Source of the DNA: Escherichia coli | Lineage (GTDB): Bacteria > Pseudomonadota > Gammaproteobacteria > Enterobacterales > Enterobacteriaceae | DNA: 64,000 bases | Direction: 5' to 3' (one strand) | NCBI RefSeq assembly: GCF_050920415.1 | Contig: NZ_CP169309.1 | In this document: one piece after another, positions 60,301 through 63,300 of the stretch | Position numbering within the stretch: position 1 is the stretch's first letter | Layout of the letters: each line of letters opens with the position of its first letter | Position numbers: made by a program

Positions 60301-63300
60301 ATGTCTCCTACCATTCTGTTAATTTCAAAATCACTTAACTGTGAATAATCCATTGTCATTTCCTCGCACGATGTCTTAGCCACCGGATATCCCACAGGTG
60401 AGCCGTGTAGTTGAAGGTTTTTACGTCAGATTCTTTTGGGATTGGCTTGCGTTTATTTCTGGAGCGTTTCGTTGGAAGGTATTTGCAGTTTTCGCAGATG
60501 ATGTCGGTGAAACTTCGTCGCTGTCGTCTCATGCCGCCCTGTCTCCCCATCGCGCTTTCCATTCGAGAGCCAGTCGCGCTTCGTCTGACCACTTAACGCC
60601 ACGCTCTGTACCGAATGCCTGTATAAGCTCTAATAGCTCCGCAAATTCGCTTACACGCATCCTGCTGGTTGACTGGCCTATTACCACAAAGCCATTCCCG
60701 GCAAGGTTAGGAACAACGTCCTGCTGCTTTAATGCTGCGGTAAAAACGCACTTCCAGCTTTCTGCATCCAGCCAGCGACCATGCCATTCAACCTGACGAG
60801 AGACGTCACCTAAGCAGGCCCATAGCTTCCTGTTTTGGTCTAAGCTGCGGTTGCGTTCCTGAATGGTTACTACGATTGGTTTGGTTGGGTCTGGAAGGAT
60901 TTGCTGTACTGCGTGAATAGCGTTTTGCTGATGTGCCGGAGATCGAATTTCAAAGGTTAGTTTTTTCATGACTTCCCTCTCCCCCAAATAAAAAGGCCTG
61001 CGATTACCAGCAGGCCTGTTACAAGCTCAGTGATGTAGATGGTCATACGTCAGCCCCTTGTGCATATCGTCTGCCACGCGCAGCAGGTGCATTTGATGCT
61101 GTGCAAATCTGTCTGGCTTCATCCTGGTCACATGCCACAAAGTGTCCGTTGCAGAACCGCTGGTAAACCGTACCAAGCGAGCCAAAACGGTTTTTCGTCA
61201 CGATGATTTCAGCAAATGGCGCGGCGCTACTGTTCTCGTCATATACCGCTTCCCGATAGAGCATGATGATTGAGTCTGCGTCCTGTTCAATGCTTCCTGA
61301 ATCACGCAAATCTGCGTTTGTCGGGCGTTTATTTGGTCGCTTCTCAACATCGCGCGAAAGCTGACTTAGGGAGATAACAGGCGTTTTCAGGTCTTTCGCC
61401 ATCGCCTTCAGGCTTCCGGAGATGTGAGCAATTGCGAGGTCGTTGCGATCTGCTTTCGGCTTCTCAATCAGGCCAAGATAATCCGCCATGATGAGTGACA
61501 GGTTTGGATTTTCCTGTTTGTGCCGTTCTGCGATTGAGCGTATTTCTTCGACCGATAACCGCGAGGCATCGACTACCCATACATCCAAATCTGCAAGCTG
61601 ACTCATGCCGTTAGCAACACGCGCCCAGCCTTCGTCATCCATCGATGCAGGATTTCGCAGCACGCTAACCGACATCCTCCCGGCGTTGGCGATGCTTCGC
61701 TCTGCAATCTGCAATGCGCTCATTTCCATCGAGAAAATCAATACTCCGCGCCGGACGTCATAACCAGGAATAACGCGGCTTGCAACGCCTTCGGCAATCT
61801 TCAGCGCCAGTTCGGTTTTCCCCATACCAGGACGAGCAGCGATTATCACCAGGTCTTCTGCGTTCATCCCTCCGGTGATGGCATCAAGTTCTTCGATTCC
61901 GGTCTTCAGGGTATCGGACTCTTCTCCGTTCCTCAGACGCCTGTCAAGCGTGTCAGTGTAGTCAGTAATGATTTCCCATAACCGTACAGGTTTTACCTCG
62001 TCACGGGGCTTTCTGATGGCTGAAAGACGCTTTACAAGTTCATCCATCGCCTGACTCGATGCGTCGATGGTTCCGCTCTGAATTGGTTCACGCATTTCAT
62101 CCATGATTTCCAGCACCAGACGGCGGTGAAAGTTATCCGCGACCATTCCGGCATATCCCTTCAGGTTTGCGGCACTCGGGCAGTTTTTGCTGGTCATCAG
62201 GATTGACGTGAAATGCTCCTCTCCGCACGCCTCGGCAACCATCAGCGCGTCGATTAGGTTTCTGTTTCTCGCCTGCTTGCGGATAACCTCGAAGGCTTTC
62301 CGGTAGAGCGGAATTGAAAACGCTTCCGGCTCCAGCGTTGCCAGAACGTCACTGGCAGTTGGTGTTAATCCACCAATCAGCAGGCCACCGATAACGCTCG
62401 CTTCGATATCCTGTTTCATGCAATCCCCCTGTCTGCAAACTTCCCTTCCCGTACTCCCGTTAACGAATCTTCCCTCAACAGGTAATCAAAATCAGCTGTC
62501 CAGCCCGTGTCGTTGTCTCCGAAGTAAAACGGCTTGGCCTGATGCACAAACGCCCTGACATACGCTCTGAAACCGTCCACGTTTGGCGTTTTCAGCTGCG
62601 GGATGATTTTCTTCAGGCGGCGTTTTCGTTTCTCGTTGACCGCAACAGCGTGTGGAAGTCTGTCACCGACTTCGGTGTTGTAGGCGTTCAGGAAGGATTC
62701 GTAGTCGATTCGTTCTGCCTTGCGACGTTCAGGTTTAACCTGCCCATCGCCTCCCCCATTGGGGGGTAGGGGGGTATTATTTATATTCTTGTTAATACCT
62801 TCTTGTTCATGATGTGCGGTTGTTTGTGCGGCTTCATGTGCGCTTTCATGTGCGGCATGTACGCTGAAAGCCGCACCATTACTGGCTTCATCATGTGCGG
62901 AATCATGTGCGGTTGTTTGTGCGGCTTCATGTGCGGGTGAATTGTCCATTTTTTGAGCGTATTCATGGTAATTTGTGATGGTGATCACACGACCTTTTTG
63001 CTTCTCTCCATCAATGGTGATCATCCCCTCTTTCACAAAAACCTGAAGCATCCGCTCAACCTGATCACGGCTTGCCGGCTTGCCATGCCTGTCGCATAAC
63101 TGAAGACCTAAATCAGCTGCTGTCACAACCAGTTGACCGGGTTGCAGATGCCATTCATGACCTTTGAAATTCGCTTTGTATGGCTTTCTGGCGGCATTCA
63201 GGAGAAGGTTTTCCCACAGGGTGCGAAGATAAACATCTTTCGCCCATGACTGTTTCAGAATGCTCCGGTACAACGGAATGTAACCAGTTTTCTGGTTCTC

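Follow-up and report, generated by a model that had tools for sequence, protein, structure and literature searches.

An undescribed layout of 12-bp direct repeats in a candidate replication origin within the O-like gene of an Escherichia coli prophage

Where would replication of a lambdoid prophage start when its initiator gene resembles gene O of phage lambda but the repeats inside that gene do not resemble the lambda iterons? The question is raised by a stretch of 64,000 nucleotides (nt) of an Escherichia coli genome (contig NZ_CP169309.1 of assembly GCF_050920415.1), hereafter the window. Its last 3 kb are the early-right region of a lambdoid prophage, lying on the minus strand, and an O-like replication initiator gene in this region carries two clusters of short direct repeats. 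Our comparisons indicate that positions 62750-62936, inside this gene, are very probably the vegetative origin of the prophage, working in outline like the origin of lambda (ori-lambda). It is an ordinary kind of element whose iteron layout is undescribed. The sequence itself shows its anatomy, an equivalence in position to ori-lambda, constraint on the repeat cores at the level of DNA, covariation between cores and recognition helix, and exchange of modules at the AT tract; we infer from these comparisons the binding, stoichiometry, unwinding and firing discussed below. The gene, its origin and the helicase gene that follows are arranged as listed here, in the direction of transcription; aa stands for amino acids and ORF for open reading frame.

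62416-63363 (-): O-like replication initiator gene, 315 aa, an intact ORF that contains the whole origin (Phage_rep_O; phrog_345)
62953-63303 (-): coding region of the N-terminal DNA-binding domain of the initiator (aa 21-137), a predicted winged helix
62889-62936 (-): iteron cluster 1, four 12-bp direct units, CCGCACATGAAG, CCGCACAAACAA, CCGCACATGATT and CCGCACATGATG on the coding strand
62856-62888 (-): spacer of 33 nt (AAGCCAGTAATGGTGCGGCTTTCAGCGTACATG), of constant length in all relatives
62808-62855 (-): iteron cluster 2, four 12-bp direct units adjoining the AT tract, CCGCACATGAAA, GCGCACATGAAG, CCGCACAAACAA and CCGCACATCATG on the coding strand
62775-62807 (-): AT-rich, purine-rich tract of 33 bp (AACAAGAAGGTATTAACAAGAATATAAATAATA), AT 0.82 and purine 0.73 on the coding strand
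62750-62774 (-): GC-rich element CCCCCCTACCCCCCAATGGGGGAGG with the inverted repeat CCCCC-CAAT-GGGGG (hairpin prediction for single-stranded DNA, z = -3.2)
62416-62749 (-): coding region of the C-terminal domain of the initiator, of the HK97 gp54 / ST104 gp18 type by DNA identity
61043-62419 (-): DnaB-type replicative helicase gene, 458 aa, overlapping the initiator stop codon (Pfam, phrog_19)

Direct repeats, AT tract and inverted repeat

The eight 12-bp direct repeats share the core CCGCACA on the coding strand (TGTGCGG on the plus strand) and form two clusters of four. Both a repeat finder and TRF detect two arrays with a period of 12 bp, one at 62806-62855 and the other at 62887-62936. An earlier reading of the sequence alone (hereafter the sequence-only reading) had proposed two clusters of repeats of about this length, which holds, but the 9-mer core that it gave, CATGTGCGG, is exact in only 4 of the 8 units and has to be shortened to the invariant 7-mer. 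This 7-mer, TGTGCGG, is exact in 7 of the 8 units, and the eighth, in cluster 2, has TGTGCGC (GCGCACA instead of CCGCACA on the coding strand). There are 16 matches to TGTGCGG in the window, 7 of them inside 124 bp. The other 9 are scattered over the 64 kb, which corresponds to about 0.02 expected per 124 bp, and the clustering is far beyond chance. No other repeat cluster was found in 60900-64000.

The repeats span 129 bp and correspond to nt 428-556 of the 948 nt of the gene, after the Phage_rep_O domain and before the C-terminal module. Their placement within a replication initiator gene, already proposed from the sequence, is confirmed by the intact 315-aa ORF, whose residues 20-132 match Pfam PF04492 (Phage_rep_O, E = 3.6e-15, 56.7 bits for a cut-off of 28.7) and which matches phrog_345, "replication initiation O-like" (E = 1e-100). 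As the same reading had it, the repeats also yield a repeated peptide: AHEAAQTTAH occurs twice, within ...PAHEAAQTTAHDSAHDE...AAHESAHEAAQTTAHHE... This His/Ala-rich peptide is a by-product of the DNA repeats, located in a linker that is probably disordered. The alternative-frame ORFs that run across the repeats (62781-62966 on the minus strand, 62803-62940 on the plus strand) were likewise set aside as by-products of the repeats.

The AT-rich tract and G-rich run seen earlier next to the repeats are both in place. The tract, presumably the DNA-unwinding element, includes the least stable 30-mer of 60900-63960 in a nearest-neighbour stability scan (62774-62804); only 0.54% of the positions of the whole window are less stable, and no comparable AT tract was found elsewhere in 60900-63960. 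An 8-mer like AACAAGAA occurs twice within the tract, 14-16 nt apart, in 57 of 61 distinct relatives. A hairpin GGTATTA...TAATACC spanning the tract was discarded, as it is not kept in relatives. The G-run (GGGGGGTAGGGGGGTA, plus strand, 62761-62776) is one arm region of the CCCCC/GGGGG element as viewed on the plus strand. A perfect GC-rich inverted repeat (at least 5 bp, loop of 2-6 nt) lies 40-50 nt past the start of the tract in 49 of the 61 relatives, versus 18 of 483 control segments drawn from the relatives' own genes. Its position is conserved and its sequence varies with the type of C-terminal domain, the arms being CCCCC/GGGGG, CCCAC/GTGGG, CGAAC/GTTCG, CCCGC/GCGGG or AACTACATC/GATGTAGTT. 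The twelve relatives lacking a short-loop inverted repeat mostly have lambda-type right arms, with an inverted repeat of longer loop. In three prophage contigs of IMG/VR (L010, L011 and L096) the first C-run after the AT tract, equivalent to 62769-62774 of the window, is C5 and not C6, which shifts the frame: the initiator ORF ends 204 codons from MENQK in L010 and L011, and the peptide is altered past the C-run in L096. These could be cases of homopolymer slippage inactivating the prophage, or sequencing errors.

Several other candidate elements were considered. A unit of 24 bp, which would turn pairs of 12-mers into four lambda-like iterons, is ruled out because many relatives carry 3+3 units. 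The inverted GGTGCGGCTT in the spacer (62868-62876) was rejected as a ninth, inverted iteron, the spacer sequence (..TGGCGCGGCTTT..) being kept where the core differs wholly. An extra TGTGCGG lies at 63323-63329 on the plus strand, 390 bp away from the origin; it falls in initiator codons 12-14, which encode AAH. We do not count this CCGCACA among operators or iterons: at the homologous place a relative whose iterons differ has GCTGCACAC, which likewise encodes AAH, and the copy therefore probably reflects homology, or else chance.

Constraint on the repeats and covariation with the initiator

Among 22 units from three phages, positions 2-6 (CGCAC) hold about 2 bits each and positions 9-12 less than 1 bit. 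The wobble base of the codon preceding Ala is C in 22/22 units, against a background of 0.24, despite the residue encoded there being variable (P, A, T or S). The Ala codon is GCA in 21/22 units, for a background of 0.34. A first scan of IMG/VR gave relatives that are all at least 99% identical, and these were used for polymorphism only, as 68 distinct full-length haplotypes. Polymorphic columns amount to 18% in the repeat cores, 53% between cores and 48% in the spacer (Fisher test of core versus inter-core plus spacer columns, p = 2e-4, an indicative value). The AT tract has no polymorphism, and there are no indels in the 68 haplotypes, in which the unit count stays 4+4. These patterns show that the constraint on the cores acts on DNA rather than on protein. 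In three IMG/VR contigs (L036, L062 and L073) the 12-bp units are reshuffled inside cluster 2, probably via gene conversion between units, with unit number and gene length unchanged.

The N-terminal domain that would read these sites was modelled with AlphaFold2 (AF2). Residues 28-137 have a pLDDT of 72-92 and include helices at 82-88 and 99-111 and a beta wing at 115-129; the predicted recognition helix spans about residues 99-111 (SRDQVERMLQVFV). The top Foldseek matches in the PDB include many winged-helix DNA-binding proteins, at a weak E of about 0.02, and a PDB sequence search with the initiator gave no match. The residues encoded by the iterons (about 138-200) have a pLDDT of 24-32, which fits a disordered linker as far as a shallow alignment allows.

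More distant relatives have other cores on the same scaffold. Salmonella phage S.Inf 5-2, with the core (C/G)CGAT(G/A)A, and Enterobacter phage ENT1, with the core G(T/A)CGA(A/G), have N-terminal domains about 46% identical. Both retain the scaffold, with units in a 3+3 arrangement at a 12-bp period, a spacer of 33 nt, the AT tract and the C-run/G-run. A further scan of IMG/VR that used these two domains as seeds gave 80 loci at 62-100% identity, and the best cluster-to-cluster offset was 69 nt (3 x 12 + 33) in 69/69 distinct regions. Indeed, the offset is 12n+33 in every relative: 81 nt with 4+4 units and 69 nt with 3+3 units. The spacer consensus across relatives is AAACCCAGtaaTGgCGCGGctTt. 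In the 61 distinct relatives the period, the spacer length and the AT tract are constant, and the cores are of five or six types. When the relatives are grouped by N-terminal sequence and the first half of the predicted recognition helix is compared, each variant of the helix goes with its own core:

SRD(Q/S/A)V(E/G)R: core CCGCACA
S(P/T/S)QAVTR: core CCGAT(G/A)A
S(A/P)KAVER: core (C)GTCGA
(S/T)xKQVRD: core GGTAACAA
SVQQVRR: core CCG(G/A)AG
SAKAVTR: mixed core set CCGG(T/G)GAACC / CCGTCCAACC

Within a locus, the six to eight units all have the core proper to it, and hence they change in concert. Such a concerted change would be explained by selection for a match to the protein, and not by linkage alone, and it suggests that the N-terminal domain binds the iterons specifically. 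In two contigs (L091, 1251-1496, and L139, 1253-1543) the cluster and spacer together form a super-repeat of 69 or 81 nt in 3.6 copies, 99-100% identical, giving four clusters instead of two; either a tandem duplication of recent date or an error of assembly could account for this.

Exchanges between phages separate the same parts. In megablast searches the initiator gene breaks at query positions 365-377 (62780-62792 of the window), inside the AT tract. The C-terminal part is 95-96% identical in DNA to ST104 gene 18, Nil2 o, HK446 and HK544, always with the same DnaB-type helicase gene after it, and the N-terminal part with the repeats is shared with phages of Klebsiella and Yersinia. Klebsiella phages 2b and ST16-OXA48phi5.2 and a Yersinia phage have N-terminal domains at 75-85% aa identity to that of the window and 4+4 or 3+3 CCGCAC units at 12-bp spacing. 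The AT tract past their last unit is of 40, 40 and 34 nt, respectively, and is followed by the lambda right-arm sequence TTCGTC(A/C)GAGAATTC..., a lambda-type O C-terminus and a Phage_lambda_P gene. Since these hybrids place the CCGCAC repeats 40 or 34 nt upstream of the lambda right arm, the repeats occupy the exact slot of the lambda iterons. In the relatives with a lambda-type C-terminus, the Phage_lambda_P loader gene takes the place of the DnaB-type helicase gene. Two modules move between phages, one made of the N-terminal domain and the iterons, the other of the end of the AT tract, the C-terminal domain and the helicase or loader. Such a division is what one would expect of an N-terminal domain that recognises the iterons and a C-terminal domain that recognises the helicase or loader.

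Phage ENT1 (L089) and several IMG/VR loci, L115, L116, L117 and L156 among them, combine this N-terminal domain and iteron scaffold with other, unrelated C-terminal domains, of which there are at least three or four, always with the junction at the AT tract. The initiator of ENT1 (L089, 1241-2401) has 386 aa and no Pfam match, and is followed by a divergent DnaB-like gene.

Proposed mechanism, rival explanations and distribution

We propose that the N-terminal winged-helix domain binds the eight CCGCACA units, placed head to tail 12 bp apart in clusters separated by 33 bp. By analogy with the lambda O-some, the resulting nucleoprotein complex would distort the DNA and open the adjacent 33-bp AT tract. 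The C-terminal domain, presumably the helicase-recruiting one, would then bring the phage's own helicase. This helicase, presumably the protein that is loaded at the origin, matches two Pfam families, DnaB_C (E = 1.2e-77) and the DnaB N-terminal domain (E = 4e-13). In P22, the initiator (gene 18) is paired with a phage DnaB analogue (gene 12) without a P-type loader. The window has a pair of this type: immediately after the initiator gene comes the one for the DnaB-family helicase, with no lambda-P homologue present, and the helicase would thus be brought to the origin without a loader of that kind. More speculatively, the GC-rich inverted repeat may bound the melted region or mark the entry site.

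Do the repeats need to act as DNA at all? A His/Ala-rich, low-complexity linker that grew by slippage, with no role in cis, would also leave in-frame repeats and a repeated peptide in a region predicted to be unstructured, and the repeat region is the most polymorphic part of the initiator gene. This explanation is highly improbable given that synonymous core positions are invariant while adjacent amino acids vary, and that 4+4 units are held in 68 haplotypes despite shuffling. Relatives moreover encode quite different peptides there (PDEPCDKPSD, VEGSDEPPVE, EVTNEVTKEV), with the same period, unit count, 33-nt spacer and AT tract. If the repeats do bind the initiator, they might do so for regulation only (titration, autoregulation or handcuffing), with unwinding and helicase loading at another site. 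Iterons have control roles of this sort in plasmids, and the extra CCGCACA near the 5' end of the initiator gene could be taken in the same sense. We consider this very unlikely: the clusters adjoin the least stable duplex of the replication module, the hybrids with lambda-type right arms have their repeats exactly where the functional lambda iterons sit, the search of 60900-63960 gave neither a second repeat cluster nor a comparable AT tract, and the extra copy is explained by homology, as described above.

It is also unlikely, given the state of the genes, that this anatomy is the relic of a cryptic module that never fires in this prophage. Many prophages are defective, the window ends at cII, with the immunity region and pR lying beyond, and the C-run frameshift occurs in some relatives (L010, L011 and L096). 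Against this, both the initiator and helicase ORFs are intact here, the C-run is of full length, and the initiator gene is 98% identical to those of the plaque-forming phages CUS-3, JEP4, Gally and HF4s. Some points do weigh against an origin at 62750-62936, or against our account of it. Firing in this particular prophage is something that we infer. Physical linkage and common descent are partial confounders of the association between helix and core. The 68 haplotypes are related and not independent, which makes the Fisher p-value indicative only, and the AF2 alignment has just 8 sequences, which makes the low pLDDT of the linker weak evidence of disorder. The units are without the dyad symmetry that underlies binding of the lambda O dimer, and the stoichiometry and geometry of binding may therefore differ from those in lambda. 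Finally, the "Eru" papers classify the replication regions of Shiga toxin (Stx) phages without an analysis of origins, and state the replication of these modules as unknown (PMC8044961, PMC8951638).

A bolder version of the origin reading would be an undescribed architecture within the O family. Winged-helix subunits would polymerise head to tail on 12-bp-phased, non-palindromic iterons in two, sometimes four, clusters 33 bp apart, the GC hairpin would be an entry signal for helicase or primase, and defences that sense hairpins would be avoided. We regard this as doubtful. OLD is reported in a 2026 preprint to bind at the palindromic iterons of ori-lambda, and both OLD and Lamassu are reported to sense ori-lambda hairpins (bioRxiv 10.64898/2026.07.10.737580). 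Escape from these systems, if true, would follow from the iterons being unable to fold into hairpins when melted.

The module is not confined to this genome. Among P22-like coliphages, CUS-3 and others carry it, as do the Stx2a phages of E. coli O121:H19 and hundreds of IMG/VR prophages. The 98% DNA identity to annotated O genes extends, beyond the four plaque-forming phages cited above, to some 50 Stx2a phages. For a 301-bp probe over the origin, coverage reaches 80% or more in 268 of the 5426 complete E. coli genomes (about 5%). The replication of Stx phages is of interest for its bearing on toxin output. Annotation of the origin at base-pair resolution is now possible, and a minimal fragment has been delimited. 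The relatives constitute a natural series in which one fixed scaffold carries five or six cores, each with its own variant of the recognition helix, and which could be used to study how a winged-helix initiator changes specificity. The element is thus widespread, unstudied in detail, and easily tested through this comparative series.

Two genes precede the initiator gene in the window:

63661-63954 (-): cII, lambda-type (Pfam Phage_CII, E = 5e-48)
63366-63641 (-): small ORF of 91 aa, function not assigned (phrog_2519, E = 2e-57; without a Pfam match)

The small ORF separates cII from the initiator gene; lambda has nothing but the oop region at this place. A terminator-like hairpin with a T-run (GGTTGCCGCCGGGCGTTTTTTATT) lies at 63685-63712 on the plus strand, antisense to the 3' end of cII; it looks like the terminator of the oop antisense RNA of lambda, and has no match in Rfam. 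The Rfam search of 60500-64000 as a whole gave no match, and a consensus scan gave no promoter in or near the origin. There are no DnaA boxes in or next to the origin, the nearest match with one mismatch being at 62278-62286. Elsewhere in the window, a perfect DnaA box (TTATCCACA) lies at 31336-31344 on the plus strand, 5 bp from an inverted copy with one mismatch (31350-31358, minus strand). Over the whole window there are 26 DnaA-box-like 9-mers with at most one mismatch, for 14 +/- 3.3 expected, and no shuffle reached 26.

Comparison with known origins

The sequence-only reading had assigned the locus to the lambda-type arrangement, with the origin inside O. This is correct for the domain order, the equivalence of the iteron slot, the AT tract and the inverted repeat, but not for the form of the iterons. 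As in ori-lambda, the element lies in the linker-coding middle of an O-family initiator gene, and the order is the same: N-terminal domain, iterons, a purine-rich AT tract of 33-40 nt, inverted repeat, C-terminal domain. In both, the last iteron is followed at once, in the sense in which O is transcribed, by the AT tract, whose composition and strand bias match between the two, with 33 nt (AT 0.82, purine 0.73) here and 40 nt (0.78, 0.75) in lambda, where the tract follows iteron 4 and precedes TTCGTCAGAGAATTCTGGCGAATCCTCTGAC. An inverted repeat lies beyond the tract in each case, GTCAGAG...CTCTGAC in lambda and the lambda-type hybrids and CCCCC-CAAT-GGGGG here, and natural hybrids join CCGCAC iterons to the lambda AT tract, right arm, O C-terminus and P. 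The iterons themselves differ. Lambda has four dyad-symmetric iterons of about 18-19 bp, annotated with starts at 39034, 39054, 39078 and 39101 (spacings of 20, 24 and 23 bp) and spanning 85 bp, whereas here there are eight 12-bp direct units without dyad symmetry over 129 bp. The folding of the iterons as single-stranded DNA has z of -6.2/-5.2 in lambda, with one hairpin per iteron, versus -1.8/-1.1 here. The partner also differs, a DnaB-type helicase here and the P loader in lambda. Since dyad symmetry, a length of about 19 bp and four copies were looked for and are absent, the element is not a plain member of the lambda type.

Direct repeats bring to mind the iteron origins of plasmids (pSC101, R6K, P1 and RK2), in which a winged-helix Rep protein binds direct repeats with an AT-rich unwinding element adjacent. 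The locus shares with them direct-repeat iterons, a winged-helix initiator (predicted here) and the adjacent AT-rich element. In contrast, plasmid iterons are of about 17-22 bp with a spacing of about 22 bp, lie outside the rep gene and usually come with DnaA boxes.

That different O-like genes have different iterons is stated as the general paradigm in the literature. For lambda, iterons within O are documented; for P22 and L, iterons within gene 18 have been inferred (PMC8022706, PMC7466680). Experimental work on the origins of Stx phages is confined to the lambda-type origin with six iterons (PMC7466680). Our literature searches found no description of the present iteron type and no experimental data on it. 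Among the closest cases is gene 18 of phage L, with six imprecise 11-bp repeats, TGTCCAACGGA, taken as the origin from sequence alone (PMC8022706). Gene 18 of phages L and P22 resembles the gene studied here in being an O-like initiator gene, from P22-like phages, that contains short direct repeats. The sequence and the type of initiator are different, and, comparing by description, PMC8022706 reports no layout of two clusters with a fixed spacer.

The nearest relation on the C-terminal side is the HK97 gp54 / ST104 gene 18 type. HK97 gp54 belongs to what has been termed Eru2A (PMC8044961), and the O121:H19 Stx2a phages with the present gene were counted as Eru2 (PMC8951638). The two types share the end of the AT tract, the CCCCC/GGGGG element, the C-terminal domain (95-96% DNA identity) and the DnaB-type helicase. 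They differ in the N-terminal domain and in the iterons, which in HK97/ST104 are four and dyad-symmetric, ATTAGCC-N5-GGCTAAT, at lambda's spacings of 20, 24 and 23. By sequence comparison the present initiator gene is a hybrid, its N-terminal and iteron module differing from that type, and neither lambda nor the HK97/ST104 type has anything equivalent to its two clusters with a fixed-length spacer between them. Hence one type of C-terminal domain and helicase serves two iteron layouts, the lambda-like dyads of HK97/ST104 and the 12-bp direct repeats described here, which raises the question of how much the geometry of the O-some matters.

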